A stretch of 64,000 nucleotides of DNA from Candidatus Saccharicenans sp. (GCA_029907135.1 JARYMJ010000006.1:1260-65259); one strand, 5' to 3'; shown: positions 1 through 41,941, counted from the stretch's first letter. The notes: generated by a model from the letters alone, not told the origin. Numbers and translations: made by a program.

Positions 1-1018
1 AATCAGCCGCTGAATGGACGTCCGGAACCCAGCCGTCTCGCCATGATGCCAGGCCAGGCGTTGTCCTTTCCAGGGATTCAAGAACCAGCCGAAGCCATAA
101 GCCGCGGCTGAACCATCAGCTTCCGTTGGGCTCACCTCTGGCACCTTCACCGGGCTAAAGGCCAGGTCCATTTCTTCTTTTTTCAGCAACCGCTCTTCTT
201 TCCAGGCCTATCCCAGAGGACTAAGTCTTCCACCGAGGAATAGATACAGCCATCCCCCCTGGTGGCCGAGGTGCGACTCTGGTCCTGCACCATCCATTTT
301 CCGTCCTGCCGGCTATGCCCGAAGGCCCGGTTAGTGATTTCAGCTTTGCCTTTTTCATAAAGGACAGTGCTTGCCATTCCCAGGGGCTTAAAAATCTTAT
401 CTTCCAGAAAACGACCGAAAGGCAAGCCGGAGATCTTTTCCACCATCAGGCCCAGAACCACATAGCCGGAATTGCTGTAGCTCCAGCTCGTTCCAGGCCT
501 GAATTTGCCCTGCCTCTCCTCTGGCAAAAGCTCCAGAACTTGGTAATCATCAACCTGCTGGTTCTCAATCGGTATACCCGGATTAGCCGGCGGTAGCAAA
601 TTTTCATAATCCGGCAGTCCCGAGGTGTGGGTCAACAGATGCCATACCTTTATCTCCCGCCCGTACTCCGGAAAATCAGAGAAAATATCAGTCAGGCGCT
701 GTTCCTAATCTAGCTTGGCCTCCCTCACCAGGAGCATAATGGCCGCGGCCGTGAATTGCTTGCTAAGCGAGGCCAGGCGAAAATTGCTGGCGGTATTCAA
801 GCGATGGCCGCTTCCCACTTGAGCCAGACCTTCGGCAGCCATAAAACAATCCGGTCCAGCTTCACCACGGCCACAGCCAGCCCAGGCAGTTGGCCTCTCA
901 CCGTTTGTCTTATTAAAGCCTCAACTTTATCCACGTTGACCTCAGGTCTTGATCGGCAGGCAGAGGCAGCTAACAGCCCAGCTAGAATAATAAGAACGGC
1001 CATCAATCTTGCCTTCAA
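1..1018 (-). pseudogene. Disrupted beta-lactamase-fold (class C / PBP-like) serine hydrolase; the 3' end runs off the window
   Basis: Manual minus-strand translation gives homologous pieces in three frames. 797-1018 encodes a signal peptide plus PGLAVAVVK. From about 845 down, a second frame reads NFRLASLSKQFTAAAIMLL (SxxK motif), is interrupted by an in-frame TAG at 705-707, and continues in the same frame as ORF 183-635 (YSNSGYVVLG, YxN motif). 1-204 is in a third frame (AYGFGWF, WHHGETAGF). Confidence 0.75.
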
Positions 1019-1261: not shown

Positions 1262-2965
1262 TTATCTCTCCTGGTAAAGGGCATAGACAAAAGGTTCACT
1301 GGTAGTCTGCCAGCCGGAAGACACCCGGCGCCCGTCTCCCAGCAGCCAGGTCACCTGGTACTGGTAATTCAGGTCATTTTCGGCATGGACGTATTCGTAT
1401 TTTCCGAGCAGCGTTTCTCCCGGCAGCAGCTTGACCTCGCCCGTCTTTTCCCGGTCGGCAAATTTGTTCTTAAAGGTAACTGTGATTAGCTTGATGTTAT
1501 AAGCCCGGACATTTTCTTCATCGGCAATGATGTCAATCTGCCGATAACGGTGAGGCGGGAACAGGTTGATGGCCGCCTCTTCACTCCGGGTCCACTGACC
1601 TTCCACCTTAATTCCGCCGACGAAGCTCCAGATAGTCTTGTATTCATAGCTCAGCCAGGTGGCACCCTCACCCAGCCGCGGATAGACAAAGGACAGCATG
1701 TTGCCGCGTTCGGCAAAAGTCTGGGCGTTAAAAATGACATCCCGAGTAGTCGGCTGGCCCGTTTTGTGCACCTTCTTAAAACTGACCGTGACGAAGTTGA
1801 TGTATTTCTTGAAGGTCTCAAAATCTTCTCCGTCCAGGATGGCATATACCACTCGGTCCTGAAGATCCGGGTCATCCAGGTTGATGATGTCATAGACTTT
1901 CTTGTTATTTTTGAATTTCCTAAGCACATCGCCGATGCTGGCATCCATCGGCCCGGTGTCTCGTTCCTGGCGCAGGCGTTTGGTCATGTTGATGGTCCAA
2001 TCATCCGTCCGGCTAACTTTTTTTCTGGTTGTGCTGACCCCGTAGGGCCGGTCTTGAGATTGCTTATCCTCTCCACCTTCTTTCTCCGACCCTTCCTCAG
2101 GCAACTCCAGCTTGGAGTCAAACATTTCCCGCATGATGGTATCAACCAGAGTCTGCATCAAACCGTCCAGATTCTGGTCTTCTCCGGTGATATCAATTTT
2201 GACCGCGCCCTTGGAAGTTAACTCATCCCTTATTTCGCGCAATTCTCCGGTGCCAGTTCTTACATACCAGGTCCAGATGCCCAGCTTTTTCTTCTTATAG
2301 ATTTTCCACTTGCTGTACTGGTCAAAATATTCCCGAACTTTTGCCCAGTGGATGGTAGCCGTGGCATGGTATTTCGGAGTCAGCCCTTCATAGGTCATCT
2401 CAAACCTGACGCTGACCGGATAGGTCGGCTGACGCAAGGCTTCTTCCAGGAAAGTTGCTCCTTCCGGTGTGACGGCAATTGAAACTGAGACTTCTGAGCC
2501 CGAAATCAAGGGCGCCTTACCTTCGCCTATGATTTTCCTGGTGAAAGCGCCTCCCTCCCCCACCGCCGCCGAAACTACCATAAAGGTGCCCTTTTTAAAG
2601 ACCAGGGGACCTTTGATGGTGGCTTTGGGGTTTATTTTCAGCAGCTCCTGCTTAACCTTGTTTAATTCTTGTTCATCCAGGCCGTACTTAACAAAAAAAT
2701 GTAAAATGCCTCCCTTGGCTTCTTCTTTGCCGGCTTTAGTGTATTTAAGAAAAGTCAGCTTGGGCGTTCCATCCGGCCAGTAGGCCAGGCGCGGCTGGTT
2801 AGGCATATAATAGTAGACATTAGGGTCAGCATGGTCCTTGAACAAAATGGCATTGACCACTTGAAGTGGGGCAGAGTCAAGTTCAACCTCGGCCGCGGCG
2901 TAAGAAGCCAGACCAAATATCCATAAGGCCACCAGCAACAATGCTAATAACTTTTTCTTGTCCAT
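1262..2965 (-). CDS. Secreted protein of unknown function, array paralog E (N-module plus duplicated C-terminal beta-type repeat)
   Basis: 567-aa ORF with ATG start and GGAG about 9 nt upstream. Signal peptide MDKKKLLALLLVALWIFGLASYAAA. Motifs: FKDHADPNVYYYMPNQPRL, GTPKLTFLKYTK, GGILHFF, and C-terminal NYQYQVTWLLGDGRRVSSGW. Clear paralogy to 3041-5806 and 7017-8714. Confidence 0.85.
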   Translation of the reverse strand: MDKKKLLALLLVALWIFGLASYAAAEVELDSAPLQVVNAILFKDHADPNVYYYMPNQPRLAYWPDGTPKLTFLKYTKAGKEEAKGGILHFFVKYGLDEQELNKVKQELLKINPKATIKGPLVFKKGTFMVVSAAVGEGGAFTRKIIGEGKAPLISGSEVSVSIAVTPEGATFLEEALRQPTYPVSVRFEMTYEGLTPKYHATATIHWAKVREYFDQYSKWKIYKKKKLGIWTWYVRTGTGELREIRDELTSKGAVKIDITGEDQNLDGLMQTLVDTIMREMFDSKLELPEEGSEKEGGEDKQSQDRPYGVSTTRKKVSRTDDWTINMTKRLRQERDTGPMDASIGDVLRKFKNNKKVYDIINLDDPDLQDRVVYAILDGEDFETFKKYINFVTVSFKKVHKTGQPTTRDVIFNAQTFAERGNMLSFVYPRLGEGATWLSYEYKTIWSFVGGIKVEGQWTRSEEAAINLFPPHRYRQIDIIADEENVRAYNIKLITVTFKNKFADREKTGEVKLLPGETLLGKYEYVHAENDLNYQYQVTWLLGDGRRVSSGWQTTSEPFVYALYQER

Positions 2966-3040
2966 TTTCTTATTCTCCTTTTGGCACTAACTTTCATATT
3001 TATGTGACTCATCCAGTTTTCTAAATTATTTTTTATTCAC

Positions 3041-5806
3041 CTATTTACTAAACATGGCAAAGATAAAAGGACTTTCCCGGTTAACCCAATTGGTCTCCAC
3101 TTCCTTGCCAGCCATGGTTAGCCAGATCAGGCGATAGCTGTATCCTGGTCTGCCCTCTTCATGCATGTAAGTGTAATTCATCTGCAAAGGGTCACCTTTA
3201 TCATAATCGATGACCAGCTCCTTGGTGATATCCCTGCCAAAAATGCTATGCTTAATCTGAATGGCTACCGCCTTAATCTTGTTCTGCAAAATATTATCCT
3301 CATCCAAGGAAATCTGTACAGTGCGACGACGAACGGGAGGAGTAAGGGTTAAGACTGAATCTGAGGTCTTTACCCAATCGCTTTCCCATTCTACTCCGCC
3401 GTATAAGGTCCATTTGGTCTTATATTCAAAATTTAGCCACTCGGTTGAAGCCTCATTGACCCGGCTGTACTTAAAGCTCAAGCGGTTGCCTCGTTCCGAA
3501 AACTGCTGCTCAAAAAACTTCACCTCGCCAGTCATTACTGGACCATCCATTCTCTGTTTGCGGAATATTACTGAAACGCTGTTCACGTAATTCTTAAAAT
3601 CTTCGGCGTCCTGCCCATCCAGGATAACTTCGACTGTTCTTTCCTGAAAAGCCGGGTCATCCAGGCTGACCACGGTGAAAAACCTCTTGTCTTCACCATG
3701 CTTCTGGTAAATTCCGCTGATGTTGCCGCTCATGACAATTTCCCGGTCTTCCCGCAAGCGTCGCCTCATGTCCACCTCATAGCGGCCAGAGAGCTTGGTG
3801 CGCTTGAAGCTATAGCCAAACTGCACGTTAAAAATTGGTTTAGCCTCAGGTGTAGCCGGAGTGGCGGTCTGAGCCGGCCGGCCGCTCTGTCCCGAAGATG
3901 AGGTCGTTTGGCTGGCGGTTTGGGCGGAAGTCGTTCCGCTTGCAGCCTGACCGCTCGTTGTCTGCTGGGTAGCCGCCGTTTGTCCCGAAGTTGTCTGCTC
4001 AGCCGTCTGCCCAGAAGTTGCCTTTCCGGACGCCTGTCCAGAAGTGCTGGTGGTTTTCTGCTCCTGTGTCGCCTGCCCAGTTCCGGTCTGGGTCCCGGCT
4101 CCTCCGGTGGCCTCGGGTCTAGTTTTCTCATAAGCAGGTAACGATTGTAGTATTCTATTTATTTCAATAATCTTTTCGTTTATAATTTCAAGCCTTTGAG
4201 TCAAATCGTCTCGGGCATCAGGATAACTGGTCAAGAAATCCCAGAGTCTCTTTAACTCTTCCTGAGCTTTCTCCAGGTAGATTCTATCGTTCATCATATT
4301 GCCGATGACGTAATAGCAAAGGGCAATATTATTCATAAATCGTGAATCCTCTACCAGTGCAAGTCCACGGCGGAAAACACTTTCTGCCTCAAGATAGCGC
4401 ATCTGGGCCTGTACTTTCTTACCGGCTTCATCCAGGGCCTGAGCCTCCTGGCGGATGCTGTTGCCTTCGGCCAGGATTTCCTCGGCTTCATTATAGGTTT
4501 TGATACGTTGTTTAGCTCTTTGCCGCAGGTCAGAGTATCGGTTAGACGAGTCGGTAGCTGAAATAAAAGCTTTGTATTTTTCCCTGGCCTTAGTATATGA
4601 CTTTAAATTTTCTTCCCAGATAGAACCCAGCGTATATAAATACCTGGGGTCAGCGCAGGCCGCATAGGCTTTTTCATAATATTCAACGGCCTCCCGATAT
4701 TGACCGGCCGAAAAAAATGATTTGGCTCTATTTTCCAAGAGTTTGGCTTGCTGCCTGGCACTGTCCGGGCAATCTTCTGGTTGACCATATTCCAACATAC
4801 TCCAGCCGGCATTAGGTCCTCCGCGGAAACTGGCGTTTTCGCCCAAGTTGCTTCCATAGTACCATCCGGCTAGGTCTTCGCTCGCACCCAGTCCAGCCGT
4901 ATTAAAAGCCGGCCAAACTCTCATCCCCCTGGCGGGGGCAACACCTGGAATTCTCAATGAAGACACAGCCCTTCCGGCACTTACCGGAACTTTATCGCAC
5001 ATCAATTGCAGGATGTGGTTGTAAGCTGTTTCCAGCAGCTTCTGCATGTTTTCGTTTTCCCCCACGACTTCCAGCTGGATCGCTCCCTTCTGCCTCAGTT
5101 CTTCCAAGGTGGCACCCAGGTCCGCTCGCAGTTTGACCACCTTGACTATCCCTTCTACCGCCGCTTTTATGTCATGTTGAGAATAAACTTTATCCCAGTC
5201 CACCTTAAGCTTGGCCTGAAAAGCCGGCGTTATACCAGAAAACTTCAAAACATATTGTACTGAAACATCGGAGGTCGGATTCTTAAAAGACTCCCAGAGA
5301 AGCGAGGCTCCTTCCTCTGTCAAGGCGATTGATACTGCCGCCTTCTGTCCTGGCAAAACCGGGGCCTTGCCCTCTCCGACGATTCTTCGGTTAAAAATCC
5401 CGTCCTCTCCAGCGGTGGCTGAGATTATCTGGAATGTCCCCTCCTTGAGGGGTACCGGTCCAGCTAATTTGGCCTGTGGGTCTACTGACTTCAAAGCTGA
5501 CTCGGCTGAGCTTAACTCTCTGCTGGTAAAGCCCCAGGTCACCAGAAAATGAATCACTCCACCCTTAGTCGTGCTATCGGTTTTAGTGTACTTGATGAAA
5601 GTAAACTCGGGAGTGCCGTCTCTTTTGGTAGCCAGGCGCGGCTGGTCAGGCACATAGTAATATTTATGGGGGTCAGCATGGTCACGGTAAAAGACAAATC
5701 TTCCGGCCTGAACCACTTCCTCTACCGCCACTTCCGCTACCAGTGGCCACACCGCTAACAGAAAAAGCGCCAGCATACCGATTAAAACTGTGGTTTTCTT
5801 TTTCAC
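3041..5806 (-). CDS. Secreted protein of unknown function, array paralog D (N-module, TPR-like insert, low-complexity linker, C-module)
   Basis: 921-aa ORF with GTG start and GGAGG 9 nt upstream. Signal peptide MKKKTTVLIGMLALFLLAVWPLVA. Motifs: YRDHADPHKYYYVPDQPRL, GGVIHFL, and C-terminal GYSYRLIWLTMAGKEVETNW. The helical-repeat middle resembles TPR (AGQYREAVEYYEKAY...). Confidence 0.85.
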   Translation of the reverse strand: MKKKTTVLIGMLALFLLAVWPLVAEVAVEEVVQAGRFVFYRDHADPHKYYYVPDQPRLATKRDGTPEFTFIKYTKTDSTTKGGVIHFLVTWGFTSRELSSAESALKSVDPQAKLAGPVPLKEGTFQIISATAGEDGIFNRRIVGEGKAPVLPGQKAAVSIALTEEGASLLWESFKNPTSDVSVQYVLKFSGITPAFQAKLKVDWDKVYSQHDIKAAVEGIVKVVKLRADLGATLEELRQKGAIQLEVVGENENMQKLLETAYNHILQLMCDKVPVSAGRAVSSLRIPGVAPARGMRVWPAFNTAGLGASEDLAGWYYGSNLGENASFRGGPNAGWSMLEYGQPEDCPDSARQQAKLLENRAKSFFSAGQYREAVEYYEKAYAACADPRYLYTLGSIWEENLKSYTKAREKYKAFISATDSSNRYSDLRQRAKQRIKTYNEAEEILAEGNSIRQEAQALDEAGKKVQAQMRYLEAESVFRRGLALVEDSRFMNNIALCYYVIGNMMNDRIYLEKAQEELKRLWDFLTSYPDARDDLTQRLEIINEKIIEINRILQSLPAYEKTRPEATGGAGTQTGTGQATQEQKTTSTSGQASGKATSGQTAEQTTSGQTAATQQTTSGQAASGTTSAQTASQTTSSSGQSGRPAQTATPATPEAKPIFNVQFGYSFKRTKLSGRYEVDMRRRLREDREIVMSGNISGIYQKHGEDKRFFTVVSLDDPAFQERTVEVILDGQDAEDFKNYVNSVSVIFRKQRMDGPVMTGEVKFFEQQFSERGNRLSFKYSRVNEASTEWLNFEYKTKWTLYGGVEWESDWVKTSDSVLTLTPPVRRRTVQISLDEDNILQNKIKAVAIQIKHSIFGRDITKELVIDYDKGDPLQMNYTYMHEEGRPGYSYRLIWLTMAGKEVETNWVNRESPFIFAMFSK
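3842..4120 (-). repeat. Thr/Ser/Gly/Gln/Ala-rich low-complexity linker inside paralog D, with degenerate TSGQ-type repeats
   Basis: Residues about 563-655: RPEATGGAGTQTGTGQATQEQKTTSTSGQASGKATSGQTAEQTTSGQTAATQQTTSGQAASGTTSAQTASQTTSSSGQSGRPAQTATPATP. It creates spurious ORFs in the other frames (3766-4131, 3908-4141). Confidence 0.8.
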
Positions 5807-5975
5807 AATTATTTACCTCCTTCCGGGCTGATTAACTCAGGCGACGGGCCTGGTATAAAATTTATAAGTTCTGGCCTTGGTCCTGATTTATGGGTTTTAC
5901 TATTGCCCGCTGATAATAAAGAGCCAAGCATCAGCTTTCTTTTTTTTCCATCTTGTGTTACCTCTCACCTGCCCC

Positions 5976-6995
5976 TTAATCGTTTTTTATAACCAGCTCG
6001 TAACTCGACAGGTCAAGAAAGGCGTTTTCCCCTTCCTGCCAGTCACTTCTGGCCAAACGGCCGTCAGCATAAACCCTGATTATCCGGTAGCGGTATTTTC
6101 CACCTTTAGCCTCCGGAACGTTAAATTCCAGGTTGTACTGCGGCTGGCTGTCCGCCGAAAAAGTAACCATCTTCGTGTCTTTCTGGCCCCGGGCGGTAGT
6201 GCTCTCCACCTCAACCGTCATCTTGACCATGTTTCCGTTCAGGCCGTTTACAAAATCAAAGCAGATAACGCCCAGCTTCCTGTAATTGAACGAGAACTTC
6301 TGGGCCAGGTTAATGACCTGAAACAGGTCTGGATTTTTCTCCATGGAAACAGGCAGGTCAAGGCTAAAACGGCCGCTTCTTTCCCCGGGCTGGAATTTTC
6401 CTTCTTCGTTAATCTCATATCCGCCATAAGAAAAAGAGCATTCAACACTTAAACCGGAAGCTTTTTTCTCTTCGTATATTCCCCAGAGGAAGGAAGCCGA
6501 TTCACGGCTGAGGGGAAAAGTAAAGCTCTTCCCTGTCCATAGGACTTTGTTCGAACCCAGGGATTTCTTATCGGTTGATTCTTCCTGGTCTTGTTTCTTT
6601 TCCAGACCAGTATAACTTAAACTTATCTCCAGCGATTCCACCGGAACCGGTCGATATTCGAATCCCGCCCCTTTTTCTTTTTTTAAAAATTCTGTGTCAT
6701 CTCCAAATTCAACGGCCAGCGTCAGGACACCACCAGCTGTCGTTCGGGGAGTATCTCCCCCCTGGTCGCGAACATAGACATATTTGTAAAAATAAAAATT
6801 CGGCTGGCCGAAAGTCTGACTCAGCCGAAGAGAACTCGGCACATAATAGAATATTTTTGAACTCTGGTGGTCGGGATAAATGATAATCCTGTTGGCTACA
6901 GTCTCGGGCCGGGTCAGGACTGGGTCAGCCACCAGCCCGACCAGGCTCTGCAGCAGAAACAGGACCAGCAGCCCAGCCGCCTTTTTACCAGCCAA
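5976..6995 (-). CDS. Secreted protein of unknown function, array paralog C (short form)
   Basis: 339-aa ORF with a TTG start 21 nt after the stop of paralog B, preceded by AAGGGAAGG. Signal peptide MAGKKAAGLLVLFLLQSLVGLVA. Motifs: YPDHQSSKIFYYVPSSLRL, GQPNFYFYKY, GGVLTLAVEFG, and C-terminal KYRYRIIRVYADGRLARSDW. Confidence 0.75.
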   Translation of the reverse strand: MAGKKAAGLLVLFLLQSLVGLVADPVLTRPETVANRIIIYPDHQSSKIFYYVPSSLRLSQTFGQPNFYFYKYVYVRDQGGDTPRTTAGGVLTLAVEFGDDTEFLKKEKGAGFEYRPVPVESLEISLSYTGLEKKQDQEESTDKKSLGSNKVLWTGKSFTFPLSRESASFLWGIYEEKKASGLSVECSFSYGGYEINEEGKFQPGERSGRFSLDLPVSMEKNPDLFQVINLAQKFSFNYRKLGVICFDFVNGLNGNMVKMTVEVESTTARGQKDTKMVTFSADSQPQYNLEFNVPEAKGGKYRYRIIRVYADGRLARSDWQEGENAFLDLSSYELVIKND

Positions 6996-7016
6996 CAGCC
7001 TTCCCTTTCATCTTCA

Positions 7017-8714
7017 TCAGAGCTTTTCATAATAGGCATAGATAAAGGGGGCGGTCGCTTTCTTCCAGCCAGAAGAAACGCGGGTATTATCCTTGAACAA
7101 CCAGGTGATGTTGTACTCGTATTCAAGATTATTCGGCTCATGGAAATAAACGTAGTTTATGTTCAGCGGCTCGCCCTTTCGCAGGACTATTTCTTTCTGG
7201 AGTTGGCGCCCGAAATTCTTATGCCTGAACTGAACGGCAATCCTGATGATGCCATTCTGGTTTATGTTCTCTTCTTCAGCCAGAACTTCGATGTACCTGT
7301 AGCGGTGGGGCGGAGTCAGGGTGATAACCGGCTGGCTGGTTTTAACCCAGTCGCCAGCCACTTCCAAGCCGCCGACATAACTCCAGATTGGCTTGTACTC
7401 GTATTCCAGCCACTTTTCGGTCTGGTCGCCTTTGCGCCGGTACTTGAGGGACAGCTTGTTGCCGTTCTGCCCGAACTTGGTCCGGTCAAAAATCAGGTCT
7501 TCGGTGACGGATTTCAGGTCAGCGTTTTCGTATTCCTTCTTGAAGGTGATGCCGGCAAAATTCAGATATTGCTGGAATGTCTGTAAATCTTCCCCATCCA
7601 GGATGACGTTTATCGTCCGCTCTTCGAAAGTCGGGTCGTCCAGGTCAACCACGGCGAAAAACTCCGGATTCTGACCGTACTGTTGATGAAGGCCTCCGAT
7701 ATTTCCCGTCAGGGGAATTTCCCGCTGGTCGCGTTTGCGCCTGGTCAGGTCAACGGTATATTTGCCCGAGAGCTTGACCTGCTTTTGATAAAAGCCGAAG
7801 TGAGCCTGGCCATACAGCTTGCCCAGCCAGTTTCGACCGGTTGAAGCCTGGGACTTACCGATGTCTTGTGGCTTGACCGGCTTGGCCTCAAACATCATTT
7901 TAGTGATGGTGTTGTAAGCTGTATCCAGCAGCTCGTCCATCTTGGTATCTTCGCCAATAACCTCCAGCTTGATGGCCCCCTGTTCTCTCAATTCTGAATA
8001 TATTTTTTGAATCTGGGCGCTGACAAAGAAATTACCCACATTGGCCTTAAACTCTTTGTGGTCGTAGACTTTATCCCAGTCCACGGTCAGCAGCGCCTGG
8101 TAGGCCGGGGTCAACCCCTGGTAGGTCATGACAAATTGAACGGAAATATCAGAAGTGGGTTTCTTGAAGGATTCCATCAGCAGGGTTGAACCTTCTTCAG
8201 TCAGAGCCATGGAAACGGCTGCTTCGGAACCGGCCAGCAAGGGAGCCTTGCCCGTACCAACAATCCTCCGGCTGAATATTCCCCCCTCTCCGGCCGAGGC
8301 CGAGATGATATGAAACTCGCCCGAGGTAAACATTACCGGCCCGATTATCTTGCCTTCCTTGTCTATTCTGGTCAGTTCCTGTTCGGCTTTTTTGAGTTCT
8401 TCCTGGGTCAAGCCAAAAGTGCAGAGGAAATGAACGATACCGCCGGTTATTTCCTTGCCGGTCCGGACATACTGGATGAAGCTGAATTTGGGCTTGCCGT
8501 CAGGCCAGGTGGCCAGCCGGGGAGAAAGCGGCATATAGTGATAGGCATGTTCATCAGCATGATCCCGGAAAAGCAGGGCGTTGCTGACTTGAACCGGTTC
8601 CCTATCCAGCAGTACCTCAGCCTGAACACCAGTCGCTGCCCAAAACAGAGCCAGGGCAGCCAGAACCAGTACTCCCCTGAATTTCTTATTTTCCCTGATT
8701 TCATTTACCAGCAT
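7017..8714 (-). CDS. Secreted protein of unknown function, array paralog B
   Basis: 565-aa ORF with ATG start and GGAGG 6 nt upstream. The signal peptide ends ATGVQA. Motifs: FRDHADEHAYHYMPLSPRL, GKPKFSFIQY, GGIVHFL, and C-terminal EYEYNITWLFKDNTRVSSGW. A hand count gives 79/127 identical residues to paralog D over GGIVHF..DWDKVY. Confidence 0.85.
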   Translation of the reverse strand: MLVNEIRENKKFRGVLVLAALALFWAATGVQAEVLLDREPVQVSNALLFRDHADEHAYHYMPLSPRLATWPDGKPKFSFIQYVRTGKEITGGIVHFLCTFGLTQEELKKAEQELTRIDKEGKIIGPVMFTSGEFHIISASAGEGGIFSRRIVGTGKAPLLAGSEAAVSMALTEEGSTLLMESFKKPTSDISVQFVMTYQGLTPAYQALLTVDWDKVYDHKEFKANVGNFFVSAQIQKIYSELREQGAIKLEVIGEDTKMDELLDTAYNTITKMMFEAKPVKPQDIGKSQASTGRNWLGKLYGQAHFGFYQKQVKLSGKYTVDLTRRKRDQREIPLTGNIGGLHQQYGQNPEFFAVVDLDDPTFEERTINVILDGEDLQTFQQYLNFAGITFKKEYENADLKSVTEDLIFDRTKFGQNGNKLSLKYRRKGDQTEKWLEYEYKPIWSYVGGLEVAGDWVKTSQPVITLTPPHRYRYIEVLAEEENINQNGIIRIAVQFRHKNFGRQLQKEIVLRKGEPLNINYVYFHEPNNLEYEYNITWLFKDNTRVSSGWKKATAPFIYAYYEKL

Positions 8715-8763
8715 AATTTCCTCCTCATTGACCCCAAGCTGCGCCCTTGGCTCTAAAGCTCCT

Positions 8764-10959
8764 TCATTTATTAAAAAGGTTTTTGACCTGATAAGGGCCT
8801 ATGGTCAGGTCCAGAGAATCGGTGACAGTTTCCCAGCTGGCTGACTCAGCCACCTGTCCGGATTTCAGGATAACCTTGATTTTGTATTCAAAGTTGAATG
8901 GCTCGCCGCTGGACATCGGCAGATACACTGTCACCAGTTCTTTGAGTTTATTTTTGTTGAAATCTATTCCAGTCACCAGACCGCTCCGGCCCTGAGCACT
9001 GAGATAAGGAGAACGGATCTCAACCCGGACTTTTTCCACTTCCAGGGGTGAATCATAAGCAGCCGGGTCAAAAACGCCGGCCAATACTTCTACCTGAAGT
9101 TTTCTCATCCTCTCGATATAAGAAACTACCTCGATGTTGCTCCAGATCTTATCCAGGCAGGGCTGGCAGCTAAAATCCGGCTCTATTTCCATCCAGAAGC
9201 TGCGGGCATATTGTTTGAAGAAGGCATCTACCTTGGGGCTGGCCGGCTTGGCCACTTCATCCTTGGCCAGCAGGTCCTCGGCTTCTTTGACTTTATCCTT
9301 GTCCAGCTTTTTCTCCAGCTCACCCTTTAGAGCTCCCAGGCCTTTATCCAGTAAGGAACTCTTCTTTTTGGGGGCGGGGGGAGCGGTGGGGAAAGTCTGG
9401 CGGTATTCGGCCAGCAGCAAACCTTTAGGAGCGAACTGGACTTCCAGGTCCAGGGCCTGGCCCGGCTGGATGATAGTTTCTTTCAGGCATTTAAGGTTCT
9501 TGTAGACATCCTCGCCGTTGGGCAGCCGGAAGCGCAGGCTGACCGATGATACCTTAATCGGAAAATCGGACAGGTTCCTGACGCCGTGGAGATAAAGAAC
9601 CGAGTTCTTTTCATCTATGGAATAGCCAAGTTCATCGACCCCCGAATACCAGTGGCCGGTAAAATATTTCAGGCCAACTCTGATGGGAATTTCTCTTTCG
9701 ACCGTTCCGGACTTAATCTTCATCCCGGCCGTCAAGCCTTCCTTTTCCAGCAATGGCTTGAGCTCGGCCAGGGTGTCAGGAGTCATGGCAATGTTGATCG
9801 GCAATTCTGTTTCCAGGGAGCCGAAGCTCGGTATCCTGATGTTCTCAATTTCCCAGTCTTCCCAGCCCTGCATATCTATTATGGAGGCTTCATCATAGGG
9901 GAGAGACTTGAGCACCGCCTGTTGACCACGAGCGGTCTTCAAAGCTTCCTCCATAAGTTTGACATCAGCCGGGTCCACGTTGGCCCTCAGGGTCATGGTG
10001 GTTTTAACTTTCTGGTCGTTGGTCCAGACCGCGCTTATCCGATAGCCGCCAGCAGCCTTATCCCGGATAAGATTGATTTCTCTGGGAAGGTAGTAGTAGG
10101 TGTTCGGTTTCTCGTTATCCTTGAACACCCGGTTCAACAGGGTCAGAGGCTCCTCAATGTTCAGGGGACCGATGTCCTCAATCTTGTGGCGGGCCGGGGC
10201 TATCCCGGCCGGATTTAAGGGGATAGTCTTGATAATAGCCGGTTTGGCCAGTTGGAGGTCAATACCTCCGGCCGGCTTCTGCTGGGGAGTCACAGGAACT
10301 CTGGTCTTGCTGGCCTCCACAGAAGGCGTCACTTTCTGCACCGTCAGGGGAGCATAGATAGCAGCCGAAGCCCAGACCGCCCAATCCTGGACCGAACGGC
10401 CGGCGGCTGATACAGCCAGCCGGAAATCTACAGTTGAACCGGCGTATGGTGATAAATCGACCGAAATCTGGTCGAGCTTCCCATCGTTGGCTGCAGCTAT
10501 CTCTTTCAATAAGACGGCTCCCCCGCCCGAACTGTTCACCAAGGAGACGATAAACTTAACCCCATCGGTTTGAGTAGCCCCTTTAAGAAAGCCAACCGTA
10601 GCATTAAAAGTGGCCCCGGCGGGTATTTTGACCCCGGGAAAGACCCCGATTATAGTGCCGTTATTCTTCCATTCAGGGTGGGTTTGCAGAACCAGGGCAT
10701 AGGTCTGTCCGTCTTCCAGAATGGCATTATTCAAGTGCCGGGCAAAGCCACGGCTATCATTATCTGCCCCGTTCCAGGGAAGCTGGCCAGCAGAAGAGAT
10801 TGCCCGGTACCAACTGGCTTCCGGAGCCTTCTTGACAAAATCATAGTTAACCACATCGGTCGCCCTGAGTCCCGAAATGACAGCCAGCATCATCACCATC
10901 AGGCTCAAGATGGAAAAACAGGAAAATATTCTTTCTCTTTTGGTTGACCTTAAACGCAT
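8764..10959 (-). CDS. Secreted protein of unknown function, array paralog A (extra N-terminal domain, then the family module)
   Basis: 731-aa ORF with ATG start and GGAG 8 nt upstream. Signal peptide/TM segment FSCFSILSLMVMMLAVISGLRA. The family motif is internal (FKDNEKPNTYYYLPREINL, residues 278-297). The C-terminus is NFEYKIKVILKSGQVAESASW. Confidence 0.8.
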   Translation of the reverse strand: MRLRSTKRERIFSCFSILSLMVMMLAVISGLRATDVVNYDFVKKAPEASWYRAISSAGQLPWNGADNDSRGFARHLNNAILEDGQTYALVLQTHPEWKNNGTIIGVFPGVKIPAGATFNATVGFLKGATQTDGVKFIVSLVNSSGGGAVLLKEIAAANDGKLDQISVDLSPYAGSTVDFRLAVSAAGRSVQDWAVWASAAIYAPLTVQKVTPSVEASKTRVPVTPQQKPAGGIDLQLAKPAIIKTIPLNPAGIAPARHKIEDIGPLNIEEPLTLLNRVFKDNEKPNTYYYLPREINLIRDKAAGGYRISAVWTNDQKVKTTMTLRANVDPADVKLMEEALKTARGQQAVLKSLPYDEASIIDMQGWEDWEIENIRIPSFGSLETELPINIAMTPDTLAELKPLLEKEGLTAGMKIKSGTVEREIPIRVGLKYFTGHWYSGVDELGYSIDEKNSVLYLHGVRNLSDFPIKVSSVSLRFRLPNGEDVYKNLKCLKETIIQPGQALDLEVQFAPKGLLLAEYRQTFPTAPPAPKKKSSLLDKGLGALKGELEKKLDKDKVKEAEDLLAKDEVAKPASPKVDAFFKQYARSFWMEIEPDFSCQPCLDKIWSNIEVVSYIERMRKLQVEVLAGVFDPAAYDSPLEVEKVRVEIRSPYLSAQGRSGLVTGIDFNKNKLKELVTVYLPMSSGEPFNFEYKIKVILKSGQVAESASWETVTDSLDLTIGPYQVKNLFNK

Positions 10960-11150
10960 GCTTTTCTCCTTTCGTGACTTTATTATTTGACCAGCTTCTT
11001 CAGGGGTGGCAGGCTAATGCCCATAGGCCTAAGAAGAAAGGATTGACCGGAGCCGGAAAGAACGATTAAAAGATAAAAAACGCCCTCTGTCTTCCGACTC
11101 AAAGGAAGCCCCGCCCAAAAAATCTTTAACTTCCACATGAATGCCATGGG

Positions 11151-11180
11151 ATGTTATCACACCTGGAAAATCCCTGTCAA
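11151..11180 (-). promoter_or_regulatory. Candidate sigma70-type promoter for the five-gene array
   Basis: The minus strand reads TTGACA (11180-11175), an 18-nt spacer, then TAACAT (11156-11151). This would give a 5' UTR of about 185 nt before the ATG at 10959. Sequence match only. Confidence 0.3.
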
Positions 11181-11554
11181 GAAAATCCTACCTGGCCCGA
11201 TTGACAGACAAGAAAAAAAATCTTTCTTGTTGACTATTAAAAACAGCCTTCGCCCCAGCAACAATTTTTGCCAAAGAACTTTTGGAACTATTATGAAAAG
11301 AAGTCGGCAACAGGGCTTTTTTAATTGTTTTTGGACAGCCAGAAAAAAATAAAGAACGGAGACAGTGCTTGGGCGACCTGACCTATTGGGCTGGAGCAAA
11401 AGTTGGTAGAACCTATACAAATAGCCTGGACCTGGTGGATAATTTCAGACAGCAGGATCTTAGACCGATTGGGTAATTGGGCCCAGCTGTGTTTTATTCG
11501 GAGACTTCAGGTCTTATATCCGTTATGACTACCGCCAGCCAGCTGCTATGAACT

Positions 11555-12103
11555 TCAGGCTAGGCCCAGGTCCTGGTCTATCCCCTGCATTGATTCCAAG
11601 CAAATGGACAGGAATTCATCCAGGCTGAGTCCTAGGTTGGCGCATTGCTCTATTTCTTCCCTCCTGGCGCCACGGGCGAAATGCTTTTCCTTGTAGCGGC
11701 GCTTGAGGAATTCTAGGTCAACCGACTTCAACTTCTTGTCCGGGTGCATCAGGGTGGCGGCGATGATCAGGCCGGTGGTCGGGTCGGCCGAGTAGATCGA
11801 CCAATCCATGGCGCTCTGGCAGGGAACCCGTCCGGCATGGGCCTGGATGGCCTGGATAACCTCGGCCGGCAGGTTGTATTTTTCCAGCATCTTGACCGTT
11901 TCGGTAGTATGGAGTTCCGGGCTCTTTTCTGTTAATTCATAATCCAGGTCGTGCAGCAGACCGGCCAGACCCCAGATTTCCTCATTGCCACCCAGGCGGC
12001 GGGCCAGGCCCTTCATGCAGGCTTCCACCGCCAGGCAGTGCTTGACCAAATTTTTGTTATGAAGGTGTTGCTTGACCAGTTCCAAGGCTTCTTCACGGGT
12101 CAC
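11555..12103 (-). CDS. HD/HDIG-domain metal-dependent phosphohydrolase
   Basis: 182 aa with NLVKHCLAVEACMKGLA and LAGLLHDLDYE (the H...HD motif). Confidence 0.75.
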   Translation of the reverse strand: MTREEALELVKQHLHNKNLVKHCLAVEACMKGLARRLGGNEEIWGLAGLLHDLDYELTEKSPELHTTETVKMLEKYNLPAEVIQAIQAHAGRVPCQSAMDWSIYSADPTTGLIIAATLMHPDKKLKSVDLEFLKRRYKEKHFARGARREEIEQCANLGLSLDEFLSICLESMQGIDQDLGLA

Positions 12104-12122: not shown

Positions 12123-14420
12123 TTATTCTCTGACCACGGAATTGATATTATACCTCAACTCAGATTTTTTGCTGAGCTGTCTGCTGGTGGCTACCACTCT
12201 GACCAGGTATTCGCCCGGGGCCAGCGGCAGCCAGGTCCAGGTATTGCTCCTGGAAGCTTGCCTGACTAGCCGGTCGCGGCCGTCCGGAGTCCGGAGATAA
12301 AATTCGTATCTGGGTTTTTCCAGTCCTGGAGCCATGGCCGTAAATACTATCCTCCGCCCGGCCGGCTGAGGCGATTCCCTTGAGGGCCTGAGGATAACCC
12401 GGGGCTCATTTTTCAGGGCATAGACCAGGCTCAGGTCCTGGCGGTAGTCATAAGTTCCCACCAGGAGCAAATCTCCGACCGCGCCCAGGTCAGTTTTTAC
12501 TTCAAAGGTCAGAACGGTTTCCGATGTCTTACGCCCTGTCTTCAGGTCCAGGCCGTACAGCACCCGGCCCGAAGGAACAATCAACTCGTCTTTCAGAATG
12601 GCCGGCCGGTAAAGGATTCTGCCCGGTACCGTTTGCCACCACAGGATATCACCGGCCGCTTGTTTAAGCTTATAAATAATCCCGCCGCCGGTCAGAAGGT
12701 AGAGATGGCGCCCATCAGAAAGCAGATGTTGAACCCGCTGACTACCCAGGTTTATCTCCCAGCGGATTTTATTTCGGGACAGATCATAGCCTTTCACTTT
12801 TCCCGAGGACGTGCCGAAATAAATCTTTTTGCCCTCAGCCGGAAGGATTGCCTCGAATTTATCCTTGAAGTCGTGCTGACCGATTTTTCGGCCGGTCTTC
12901 AGGTCGAACCTGAGGAGCTGTCCCGAAAGGCAGGGAACCAGTACCTCAGAACCGGAAATGATAAGCGGCCGGGAAAATTCAGCCGGAAGCTCCTTGTGCC
13001 AGAGCAACTCACCCGTCTCGGTCGAGCGGGCTTCAAGACCATTCTTAAAAGGCAATAGCAGCCAGTTTTCGGACACTACCGGAGTTCCGGCCAGGGGTTC
13101 AACCAGTTCTACCTGAGGTCCAGCTATTATTCCGGAAAAGCTAAGTCCAAAAAGCTTCTGGCCTGAACTGACCCAGAAACCGGTCTTTCCCGGGACCGGG
13201 TTCTGTTCCAGGTTCATTTCCAGAAGTCCGACGGCTTGCTTTTTTCCAGACCGAACCTCGAGCAATTCATATGCCGGTGGCCTGTTTTCATGAGACCAGA
13301 AAAGATTATCAGAGGATGGGACCAGATACCTGACCCGACCACGAGCAAAGTTGACCCAGGCTCTGGTTAAAGAAAATTTGAAAAGTTCTTCCGGAGCAGG
13401 CCCCACCTCTTCCCCCCTCCTTTCTCGAACCAAGGTCCCGTTCCGGCTTTGCTTCCCGGCTGCTTGAGCCGAGCCGACATTATCAGCTTTCATTCGGGAC
13501 TCTTTTATTGTTCCTTCTGATTTACCGGTAATCTGAACTGGGGCCGGCTGGATAGCTGGCTCTCCTCCAGCCATCTGATTTGCCGCCTTTTTCCCGTTCT
13601 TTTCCAACTCTAAATCGGCGGGAGAAAGAAGCTCATCTATCCTGACCAGGGTATAACCCCGAGCGCTCAGTTCTTCTATGAGCTCCCCCACCCGGAAATA
13701 GAACAAGTCGGTTCTTTCGACCGCCACTCCGAGATGGACCAGGATGATAAAGCCATTGAGCCCGGCCGGACTCTCCTTCTCGTATTCAAGCAGCTGCTCC
13801 AGAATTTCTTCTGAAGAGCGGTAACCGGGCAGGTCTGGACTGATATAGTCGGAGTTGGTCAAAAGGCCGGGCGTGAAATTAACGACCACCGCCTCAGCCT
13901 CTGCCGCCCAGCCGGCAATCTCCCAGTTATACCATTCATATGGCGGCATGAAAAACCGGGCCCGGGCTCTGGTCACCCCGAATTTTTCCAGCTCCTGGTA
14001 ATTCTTATCCAGGTCGGCCAGGAACTCATCCTTTTGGACCAGGGTTTTTTGCCGGTCCTGCCAGTCGCAATAAAGAAGATGGCGGTCAGAATGAGGGCCC
14101 AGGTAATGCCCGGCCTCCACCATTTTTTCTATCCAGGGGCGGAATTCAGGCTGGCGAAGAAAATTACCGGTAAGAAAAAAGGAACCCTTTAGGTGGCGCT
14201 TCCATAATTCGGAAAGAATATATTCTGCCCCCTCTCCGAAGGAATCCGCGGTGAAGACCAGGGCCAGCTTCTTTTGGTCGCGAGGACCCCGGATTATCCC
14301 GCCCTGTTCCAGAGTCAGGTCTTGAGCTGCAATAAATTCAGCCAAGAAAAATAGCAACAGGGCCAGGACGAGCGGGATGGGCAGAACCACTACTCTCTTT
14401 CTAACCTGTTGCCTGGCCAT
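12123..14420 (-). CDS. Fusion protein: polysaccharide deacetylase domain, PQQ/BamB-like beta-propeller repeats and a C-terminal Ig-like (Y_Y_Y-like) domain
   Basis: 765 aa with a signal/TM segment. Deacetylase signatures: LALVFTADSFGEG and GPHSDRH. Repeated x-G-x-L-x-x-x-D-L-K-T-G-R-K type blades: LLRFDLKTGRKIG, VKGYDLSRNKIRW, LYGLDLKTGRKTS. The tail is YEFYLRTPDG...GEYLVRVVA. Confidence 0.75.
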   Translation of the reverse strand: MARQQVRKRVVVLPIPLVLALLLFFLAEFIAAQDLTLEQGGIIRGPRDQKKLALVFTADSFGEGAEYILSELWKRHLKGSFFLTGNFLRQPEFRPWIEKMVEAGHYLGPHSDRHLLYCDWQDRQKTLVQKDEFLADLDKNYQELEKFGVTRARARFFMPPYEWYNWEIAGWAAEAEAVVVNFTPGLLTNSDYISPDLPGYRSSEEILEQLLEYEKESPAGLNGFIILVHLGVAVERTDLFYFRVGELIEELSARGYTLVRIDELLSPADLELEKNGKKAANQMAGGEPAIQPAPVQITGKSEGTIKESRMKADNVGSAQAAGKQSRNGTLVRERRGEEVGPAPEELFKFSLTRAWVNFARGRVRYLVPSSDNLFWSHENRPPAYELLEVRSGKKQAVGLLEMNLEQNPVPGKTGFWVSSGQKLFGLSFSGIIAGPQVELVEPLAGTPVVSENWLLLPFKNGLEARSTETGELLWHKELPAEFSRPLIISGSEVLVPCLSGQLLRFDLKTGRKIGQHDFKDKFEAILPAEGKKIYFGTSSGKVKGYDLSRNKIRWEINLGSQRVQHLLSDGRHLYLLTGGGIIYKLKQAAGDILWWQTVPGRILYRPAILKDELIVPSGRVLYGLDLKTGRKTSETVLTFEVKTDLGAVGDLLLVGTYDYRQDLSLVYALKNEPRVILRPSRESPQPAGRRIVFTAMAPGLEKPRYEFYLRTPDGRDRLVRQASRSNTWTWLPLAPGEYLVRVVATSRQLSKKSELRYNINSVVRE

Positions 14421-17669: not shown

Positions 17670-17743
17670 CGGGACGTGGCGCAGCCTGGTAGCGCACATG
17701 CTTGGGGTGCATGGGGTCAGCGGTTCAAATCCGCTCGTCCCGA
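17670..17743 (+). tRNA. tRNA-Pro (anticodon GGG)
   Basis: Hand-folded cloverleaf. Acceptor CGGGACG/CGTCCCG, D-stem GCGC/GCGC, anticodon stem CATGC/GCATG with loop TTGGGGT, T-arm AGCGG-TTCAAAT-CCGCT, discriminator A. CCA is not encoded. A T7 run follows. Confidence 0.9.
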
Positions 17744-41866: not shown

Positions 41867-41941
41867 CGGGGAGTAGCGCAGCCTGGCCAGCGCACAGCGT
41901 TCGGGACGCTGGGGTCGTGGGTTCAAATCCCACCTCCCCGA
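41867..41941 (+). tRNA. tRNA-Pro (anticodon CGG)
   Basis: Hand-folded. Acceptor CGGGGAG/CTCCCCG, D-stem GCGC/GCGC, anticodon stem CAGCG/CGCTG with loop TTCGGGA, T-arm GTGGG-TTCAAAT-CCCAC, discriminator A. CCA is not encoded. Confidence 0.9.

Follow-up and report, generated by a model that had tools for sequence, protein, structure and literature searches.

The window analysed here, i.e. a stretch of 64,000 nucleotides (nt) from Candidatus Saccharicenans sp. (GCA_029907135.1, JARYMJ010000006.1:1260-65259, positions counted from its first letter), carries on its minus strand an array of five consecutive genes, A to E, that encode apparently secreted, mutually related proteins. Together the five genes make up a cassette of conserved type, which recurs between unrelated flanks at about 74 loci in at least ten phyla. 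An earlier sequence-only reading had proposed a novel multi-component system of exported paralogs belonging to no recognisable family, and this core proposal is supported and withstood the attempts to refute it. We give about even chances to the view that the array represents an undescribed, ancient, protease-associated machine of paralogous beta-sandwich subunits, which occurs in at least ten phyla in exported and leaderless versions and belongs to no known assembly class. Such a machine could be, for example, a new protease-triggered membrane-attack complex or a new extracellular polymer.

The five genes and their products

The open reading frames (ORFs) were found exactly where the sequence-only reading had placed them. 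Gene A (8764-10959, 731 amino acids, aa) is the first of the array and encodes the A-type subunit; it is followed by B (7017-8714, 565 aa, full-length subunit), C (5976-6995, 339 aa, TTG start, short C-type subunit), D (3041-5806, 921 aa, GTG start, full-length) and E (1262-2965, 567 aa, full-length), which is the last gene. The gaps between them, 49, 21, 169 and 75 nt, and the spacer of 595 nt upstream of A agree with these coordinates. A Shine-Dalgarno sequence had been claimed for each gene; AGGAG-like sequences stand before A, B, D and E, and C is preceded by the weaker GAAAGGGAAGG.

By sequence comparison B, D and E are clearly paralogs, far beyond chance. In BLASTP, B and E are 41% identical over 557 aa (E 1e-159), B and D show 50% and 44% identity over the two modules (E 1e-82 and 7e-74), and D matches E with E-values of 1e-58 and 4e-52. 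When the six-frame-translated window was searched by hmmsearch with a profile of the B/E type, C was matched at the first ~95 residues of the mature protein (9.2e-9) and at its last ~90 residues (6.4e-4). For A, BLASTP against the five-sequence database gave only matches of 28-40 residues (5.6e-4 and 0.026). An A-type alignment compared by hhalign matched the B-type N-module at residues 275-467 of A (81.7% probability, E 1.1e-5, 166 columns) and the shared terminal domain at residues 637-719 (74-84% probability, E 7.5e-6 to 2.7e-5), and the A-type proteins of other genomes repeat both weak matches, i.e. that of the N-terminal core and that of the last domain. These comparisons support the view that A is a distant family member, related at the profile level only, and that C is a significant short relative.

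The N-module that was said to be common to all five proteins is therefore clear in B, D and E, is limited to the first ~95 residues in C and is seen in A only by profile-profile comparison. The shared C-terminal motif is backed in all five, by BLAST for B, D and E, by the profile for C and by hhalign for A, and the motifs that had been quoted are all present in the translations. In other words, the suspicion that the shared motifs might be non-significant can be set aside, as the modules are statistically real. The only elements kept by all subunit classes (A, C and full-length) are the first ~95 residues of the N-module and a terminal beta-sandwich of ~90 residues. The segment GAI(K/Q)LEV(I/V)GE(D/N) had been called helix-like; the models predict a beta-strand followed by a helix.

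The domain borders follow from the same comparisons, all on the minus strand. In A a beta-rich, lineage-variable head of ~230 aa (residues ~34-265, 10165-10860) precedes the diverged N-module (residues ~275-467, 9559-10137, containing FKDNEKPNTYYYLPREINL) and the C-terminal beta-sandwich (residues ~637-719, 8803-9051, containing NFEYKIKVILKSGQVAESASW), the latter two being assigned by hhalign. B consists of a signal peptide (8619-8714), the N-module (about residues 33-285, 7860-8618), a short linker (7803-7859) and the C-module (residues 305-565, 7020-7802), with module borders taken from BLAST against D and from profile matches. In C the profile matches mark the N-module part of ~95 residues (6678-6968) and the last beta-sandwich (6015-6293). 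BLAST against B and profile matches place the N-module of D at 4973-5734 and its C-module at 3044-3871, and between them lies an insert of about 367-380 residues (3872-4972). This insert holds tetratricopeptide (TPR) repeats (about residues 353-505, 4292-4750) followed by a low-complexity stretch rich in T, S, Q and G. Six TPR models match residues 353-419 with E 4.6e-7 (TPR_16) to 0.019, the best at 30.6 bits for a cut-off of 32.7, and homologs of the D type bear TPR in their names or in precomputed hits.

Family-wide, the linker between the modules ranges from 30 to 736 residues (median 130, 138 representatives) and is rich in A, S, P, K and E, i.e. it is variable, of low complexity and mostly disordered. 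Of 58 relatives with an insert, 7 have TPRs in it, and one homolog has a GDSL lipase there. The invariant positions of the family are Gly, Pro and aromatic residues, and no catalytic-looking set of residues stands out.

The claim of Sec-type signal peptides without a lipobox Cys agrees with what a heuristic for signal peptides and lipoboxes (basic N-terminus, hydrophobic 10-mer, AxA-type site) detects in all five products. Each has a basic N-terminus and a hydrophobic 10-mer with a mean Kyte-Doolittle value of 2.7-3.2; A, B, C and D have the AxA-type sites LRA|T, VQA|E, LVA|D and LVA|E, respectively, and in E positions -3 and -1, behind the hydrophobic stretch, are small residues. Hydrophobic N-termini are found in about 88-100% of the proteins of each component class, and only 24 of 309 family members contain a lipobox-like string. 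The N-terminal sequences thus show the products to be exported by Sec, as far as such a heuristic can tell.

Distribution and subunit classes

A profile search of 1.84 billion representative proteins recovered 1,948 representative homologs at E <= 1e-3, of which 475 were found at 1e-30, and nearly all of the 1,948 follow the same plan of N-module, variable insert and C-module. The scan of GTDB species genomes located 70 loci. Those of the Bacteroidota include Lewinella, Tenacibaculum xiamenense, Aquimarina, Emticicia, Dawidia, Parachryseolinea, Agaribacillus and others, and further loci belong to Acidobacteriota, Eisenbacteria, Gemmatimonadota, Desulfobacterota, Gammaproteobacteria, Planctomycetota, Armatimonadota, Dormiibacterota, Limnocylindrales and Binatia. 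The carriers are free-living bacteria of sediment, soil and water, and most of them are diderm. Conservation of the multi-paralog layout, which had been put forward for checking, is seen in Aminicenantes, Bacteroidota, Planctomycetota, Gemmatimonadota, Eisenbacteria, Desulfobacterota and Proteobacteria. A and B have their closest relatives in metagenome-assembled genomes (MAGs) of Aminicenantes and Acidobacteriota; one MAG of Candidatus Saccharicenans sp. encodes a protein, annotated as 'hypothetical protein', with 100% identity to the product of gene A.

ORF calling and protein clustering in 74 loci showed 3-9 family members in most of them; some loci, often on short or cut contigs, have only one or two. 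The A-type cluster (c1) occurs in 51 of the 74, and a C-type gene of 330-400 aa is present as one copy in nearly every array. The canonical order is an A-type gene (~750 aa), a C-type gene (~380-400 aa), four full-length genes (~607, ~590, ~660 and ~667 aa) and a gene for a ~470-aa secreted protein with an HExxH motif, and the size of the cassette ranges from 5 to 12 genes. It is conspicuous that the full-length proteins, compared by identity over the profile columns, cluster by their position in the array and not by phylum. Four groups are formed, each of which contains Gammaproteobacteria, Bacteroidota, Planctomycetota, Eisenbacteria and Gemmatimonadota, and the Desulfobacterota keep three. 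As the grouping follows position and not phylum, the duplications must be ancient, i.e. the four subunit lineages predate the phyla in which they are found, and the presence of position-specific groups in five phyla argues for non-redundant, non-interchangeable subunits of one complex.

The proteins B, D and E of the window form a cluster of their own together with those of another Aminicenantes genome, which makes the Aminicenantes cassette a derived form. Judged from the sequences, it consists of one A, one C and a lineage-specific triplication of one full-length type, in an altered gene order and with no HExxH gene. The order A-B-C-D-E recurs in Aminicenantes relatives with different flanks, and orthologs of E occupy the same position in two of their arrays (L002 and L003). 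A six-frame profile search found no sixth family member elsewhere in the window, nor any homolog of the HExxH partner. In L002 (16273-20827) the five-gene array is followed by a gene that encodes only an N-module (308 aa) and by four tandem ~250-aa paralogs without a Pfam match; the window lacks counterparts of these. The array had been said to look like an accessory region, and this is correct in that the flanks differ between genomes; the cassette itself, however, is old and widely shared and is no local novelty.

The close mutual similarity of the Aminicenantes B, D and E points to a recent lineage-specific duplication and would be expected if the genes encoded independent, redundant secreted binders, e.g. 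an expanded adhesin or substrate-capture family that stands in tandem by chance and forms no single complex. The inserts that vary among the copies fit this idea, as do the saccharolytic lifestyle suggested by the genus name Saccharicenans and the polysaccharide deacetylase fusion encoded nearby. We nevertheless consider it very improbable: five other phyla keep four orthogroups in fixed order and size, A- and C-type partners are kept once per array across phyla, and genes overlap or abut in many arrays.

Predicted folds, protease partners and mode of assembly

The claim that the proteins belong to no recognisable family stands, since neither the five proteins nor their relatives gave a confident profile match in Pfam-A, NCBIfam, PADLOC or the PDB sequences. 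Apart from sub-threshold matches, Pfam-A and NCBIfam gave nothing for A, B, C and E; for D they gave only TPR. The same libraries detected no core family in 78 diverse relatives, 58 insert-bearing relatives, 49 A-type relatives, 21 HExxH proteins and the whole Tenacibaculum array, the sole exceptions being TPR, the one GDSL lipase insert, DUF7452, PAN and NPCBM in the heads of A-type proteins and M43 in the protease slot. The only curated model that matches any core component is DUF7452 (PF24249), which is itself uncharacterised; it occurs as three repeats in the variable head of 5 of 49 A-type proteins (PAN and NPCBM in 1 of 49 each) and has no match in gene A of the window, where the head gave only sub-threshold Pfam matches (He_PIG, E 0.014; NPCBM, E 0.1). 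A sub-threshold match of B to DUF7352 (E 0.0078) was rejected, as it did not recur in the 78 relatives. PADLOC gave no match, and among the PDB sequences nothing below E 0.17 was found for B, for three profiles (B/E-type, A-type and HExxH) or for a 588-aa protein of the leaderless clade described below. No description of the family was found in full-text literature searches, nor in what a term search brings up in Kaur et al. 2020 (PMC7159879). In RefSeq the homologs of cultured strains are labelled 'hypothetical protein', and the function of the family, once found, would annotate thousands of such proteins (about two thousand clusters at 50% identity). No core component matched any library searched, and the system could bring to light a new way in which structures are assembled outside the cytoplasm or attack is controlled by proteases.

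Structure models predict that the subunits are built from two beta-sandwich modules. The AlphaFold model of B, built on a 20-sequence alignment (pLDDT 77.7, pTM 0.46), is almost all beta, and its C-module comprises a hairpin and two sandwich domains. The N-module, modelled with 78 diverse sequences (pLDDT 85.3, pTM 0.69), is a beta-sandwich with inserted helices. Residues 205-253 of B form a long beta-hairpin in the shallow-alignment model and are mostly helical in the deep-alignment one. The proposed Foldseek check of the predicted structures gave no meaningful match for either model, only generic immunoglobulin (Ig), FN3, MG and arrestin-type matches with template modelling (TM) scores <= 0.26. 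For full-length B, the PDB matches were only multi-Ig, FN3 and MG proteins (TM ~0.1), and BFVD gave only similar generic ones; for the N-module, the best PDB matches were Vps26/arrestin and other Ig-like domains (E >= 5e-3, TM <= 0.23). The structural neighbours are thus poor matches to the Ig, FN3 and MG-type arrays of adhesins and receptors.

On these grounds we tentatively favour, at less than even probability, an exported hetero-oligomer whose subunits are joined via the two shared elements and which would serve as a periplasmic or cell-surface binding scaffold, similar to a fibre or a lattice. The subunits would assemble into a defined hetero-oligomer outside the cytoplasm, in contact with one another through the start of the N-module (~95 residues) and the terminal sandwich (~90 residues). 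A would be a lineage-variable ligand-binding head and C a minimal adaptor or capping unit, while B, D and E would be the bulk subunits, their N- and C-modules separated by the variable, mostly disordered linker that in D would display a TPR platform. Maturation of the subunits is probably the task, in most other phyla, of the co-encoded secreted HExxH protein or of the M43 peptidase that takes its slot. A hetero-oligomer is suggested because the layout of A, C and several full-length subunits recurs in about 74 loci, and because in independent genomes the similarity of A- and C-type proteins to the full-length profile is repeatedly confined to the N-terminal core and the last domain. The co-oriented, tightly spaced genes, the non-catalytic invariant residues and the absence of a conserved membrane or ATPase partner point in the same direction; no conserved cytoplasmic, inner-membrane, ATPase or outer-membrane-barrel partner was seen next to the array, either among the window neighbours or in the 74 loci. 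A scaffold, fibre or lattice is favoured because of the adhesin-like sandwiches, the length and disorder of the linkers, the modularity of the heads and the apparent lack of a membrane-insertion signature.

Part of this evidence would also suit a purely periplasmic complex for envelope upkeep, i.e. a scaffold, tether or trap between the membranes, in which the linkers span the periplasm and the TPR recruits partners. Only Sec signals were detected, with no outer-membrane translocation signal, C-terminal domain of the type IX secretion system (T9SS) or usher in the proteins and relatives scanned; the linker lengths are typical of periplasm-spanning proteins, most carriers are diderm, and Foldseek repeatedly gave weak matches to MG-domain proteins of the alpha-2-macroglobulin family (E 5.7e-5 to 3e-3). 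The TM scores of the latter are at most 0.12, however, and neither a CxEQ motif nor an A2M Pfam match was found. The translations and Pfam scans of the window proteins showed no thioester motif, lipid anchor or peptidoglycan-binding domain either. Moreover, the patchy, cassette-like distribution is unlike that of core envelope genes and leaderless relatives exist in Actinomycetota, so that we regard this explanation as improbable.

The array is closed in 34 of the 74 loci by the ~470-aa secreted protein, which has the invariant motif HExxHTQ...YG.DG.H...E (loci L005, L007, L013, L019, L025, L027, at 12924-14405, and L063 are examples). It has no Pfam, NCBIfam or PDB match, and its motif makes it a candidate for a new family of zinc metallopeptidases. 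Seven loci have an M43 peptidase cluster instead, which in L044 stands directly after the full-length genes. Bacteroidota arrays have additional A-type copies, a gene for an N-module only (~225 aa) and, always after the latter, one for a ~235-aa secreted protein without a Pfam match (L027:8061-8768, L005:7304-8035 and 20 other Bacteroidota loci). The GHVGIA...NNCADF motifs of this protein are suggestive, by eye only, of a permuted papain-like (PPPDE/LRAT-type) enzyme. In some Cytophagia genes for an extracytoplasmic function (ECF) sigma factor, an anti-sigma factor and a CHAT protein lie upstream; CHAT has a Pfam match and the other two were read by eye.

A leaderless sister clade complicates the envelope and the exoprotein options alike. 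A tblastn search of plasmids found distant homologs in Pararhizobium qamdonense (p2; L077 and L078) and Paracoccus (L079), whose proteins start with 'ML(S/Y)L...' right at the N-module and have no signal peptide. Relatives of this kind, all annotated as hypothetical, occur in Rhizobium, Mesorhizobium, Starkeya, Amycolatopsis (array L080), Arachnia, cyanobacteria, Anaerolineales and Burkholderiales. The leaderless arrays, too, are conserved: some five paralogs (760-900 aa) are accompanied by two other proteins, one of ~280 aa and one of ~585 aa. The larger of these two carries GTC...GGHAV motifs, looks papain-like (by eye only) and is fused in the Burkholderiales locus L081 to Peptidase_S8. In Paracoccus (L079, 5390-10277 and 19843-30305) the array comes right after genes for a trypsin-like peptidase, an EAD1 protein and an ATP-binding protein and is interleaved with PLD-like, tyrosinase and trypsin-like genes. 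On our reading the ATP-binding protein is of the STAND type and forms with its neighbours an EAD1/STAND/trypsin conflict system, although the annotation does not say so; its adjacency to the array may be coincidental, or the two may share a defence island. Cultured carriers make the system tractable in both clades: Tenacibaculum xiamenense, Emticicia sp. CRIBPO, Dawidia, Parachryseolinea and Agaribacillus have the exported version, and Pararhizobium qamdonense, Rhizobium sp. Root483D2, Mesorhizobium sp. Root552, Starkeya and Amycolatopsis the leaderless one.

The proteases bring in the principal rival of a scaffold, i.e. a protease-activated, multi-component membrane-attack or exotoxin system in which A would target a membrane and the cleaved full-length paralogs would co-oligomerise on it and insert amphipathic beta-hairpins. 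We regard it as possible though doubtful, and the same applies to the release by general secretion, vesicles or lysis that it would involve. Exported paralogs in tandem, variable binding heads on the A-type proteins and proteases in the cassette of most lineages (the invariant HExxHTQ protein, M43, papain-like proteins, the S8 fusion) are what such a system would have, and the coexistence of Sec-exported and leaderless clades is reminiscent of toxins that act from either side of the membrane or are released by lysis. No immunity gene was seen, however, the window has no protease, the carriers are free-living, and long disordered linkers are unusual among pore formers.

The models speak to the same question. 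The hairpin/helix ambiguity of B 205-253 and the period-2 hydropathy that runs family-wide over residues 189-217 could both be read as signs of a membrane hairpin. The alternating strands, however, belong to the most conserved positions and pack well in the deeper model, which speaks for the core of a sandwich and not for a membrane hairpin, and the hairpin at B 305-338 is highly charged on both faces. A hydropathy-periodicity search for a membrane hairpin brought up only conserved core strands. The best toxin in Foldseek, Vip4Da2 (full-length B model, E 5.7e-5, probability 0.35), and the GDSL lipase insert of one homolog are in line with a toxin, but the TM score of the former is 0.08, and no profile or fold match to the aerolysin/ETX-MTX2, leukocidin, PA-type, MACPF/CDC, ClyA/Hbl or gasdermin families was obtained. 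Specifically, the beta-barrel toxin families had no Pfam match in the five window proteins or the 78 relatives and no fold match to the N-module; MACPF/CDC had no Pfam match and no entry among the Foldseek matches listed; and Hbl/Nhe/ClyA had no Pfam match at E<=1 and no PDB sequence or fold match, the models being mainly beta-strand.

The comparison with Hbl/Nhe that accompanied the sequence-only reading is apt for the layout, i.e. tandem paralogs with signal peptides, and fails on the fold, because these toxins are alpha-helical and the array proteins are predicted beta-sandwiches. More generally, the bi-component and binary beta-barrel toxins (leukocidins, PA/Vip1/Vip4-type) and Hbl/Nhe resemble the array as tandem signal-peptide paralogs that act together, some being proteolytically activated and some having a receptor-binding component. 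The array differs in that it shows no sequence or fold kinship with them and no convincing membrane hairpin, and in its five to twelve components, ancient orthogroups and free-living hosts. Bacterial gasdermin-protease operons likewise place a non-enzymatic beta-rich effector beside a dedicated protease and are patchy and cassette-like, and the leaderless sister clade would be cytoplasmic like gasdermins. Gasdermins, however, are single cytoplasmic proteins of ~250-300 aa, whereas the window proteins carry signal peptides and their array has no protease; neither a Foldseek fold match nor a PADLOC match to gasdermins was obtained.

Two kinds of pili can be compared with the scaffold that we favour. 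Type V pili of Bacteroidota (fimA-E, mfa1-5) are made from about five tandem, Sec-exported beta-sandwich paralogs with position-specific roles as stalk, anchor, tip or accessory subunits; their assembly depends on a protease, which is encoded outside the operon and cuts off an N-terminal strand before the pilins polymerise by strand exchange, and conserved terminal elements join the subunits. Their pilins, however, are lipoproteins with a lipobox Cys and a FimA/Mfa Pfam family, whereas the array proteins have no lipobox, and no FimA/Mfa-type pilin profile matched the window proteins or the relatives scanned. In chaperone-usher pili (fim, pap) several Ig-like paralogs share N- and C-terminal motifs and the adhesin has an extra N-terminal binding domain, as A does. 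Such operons need a periplasmic chaperone and an outer-membrane usher, neither of which is seen among the window neighbours or conserved in the 74 loci, and the array subunits are three to five times larger.

Several points weigh against the scaffold. It is from conservation that the two shared elements are taken to be interfaces, and no outer-membrane route is encoded, which leaves a surface fibre unexplained. A leaderless multi-paralog clade, present in Alphaproteobacteria, Burkholderiales, Actinomycetota and others, would not be expected of an envelope fibre. Protease partners recur in both clades, and activation of a toxin fits them at least as well as maturation of subunits. Finally, B, D and E cluster together outside the four ancient groups, so that strict specialisation may be relaxed in this lineage.

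Surroundings of the array

In the non-coding spacer of 595 nt upstream of A (10960-11554) lies the site that most resembles a promoter in this region (TTGACA-18-TAACAT with TG upstream, 11151-11180), ~190 nt upstream of A. Scans gave no more promoter-like sites and terminators than shuffled sequence, and the site is therefore a candidate only. No convincing terminator was detected in the interior of the array. The 169-nt spacer between C and D (5807-5975), in which no Rfam family and no convincing promoter or terminator was found, is peculiar to this genome; in L003 the orthologs of C and D overlap by 4 nt.

The window neighbours of the array are genes for an HD-domain protein, a deacetylase/beta-propeller protein and MgsA. 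The second of these (12123-14420, minus strand), two genes upstream of the array and past the HD-domain gene (11555-12103), encodes a 765-aa exported protein in which a polysaccharide deacetylase domain is fused to a PQQ/BamB-like beta-propeller; it is not conserved beside the array in other genomes. On the other side lies a beta-lactamase/serine-hydrolase-like gene (1-1018, minus strand) that is broken over at least three frames. A lipoprotein-type signal (LAASAC) is found at 797-1018, an SxxK motif (SLSK) at 705-842 and a match to positions 100-231 of Pfam Beta-lactamase at 183-635, and another frame reaches the edge of the window. The gene is either a pseudogene or the result of assembly frameshifts. 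The only Rfam matches in the window are two plus-strand tRNAs (17670-17743 and 41867-41941), far from the array.

Plus-strand ORFs of 190-240 aa run antisense to E (1550-2221), C (5877-6452), B (6867-7586) and A (9586-10218). They look like by-products of the coding strand, and similar antisense ORFs produced a spurious cluster (c4) in GC-rich loci.

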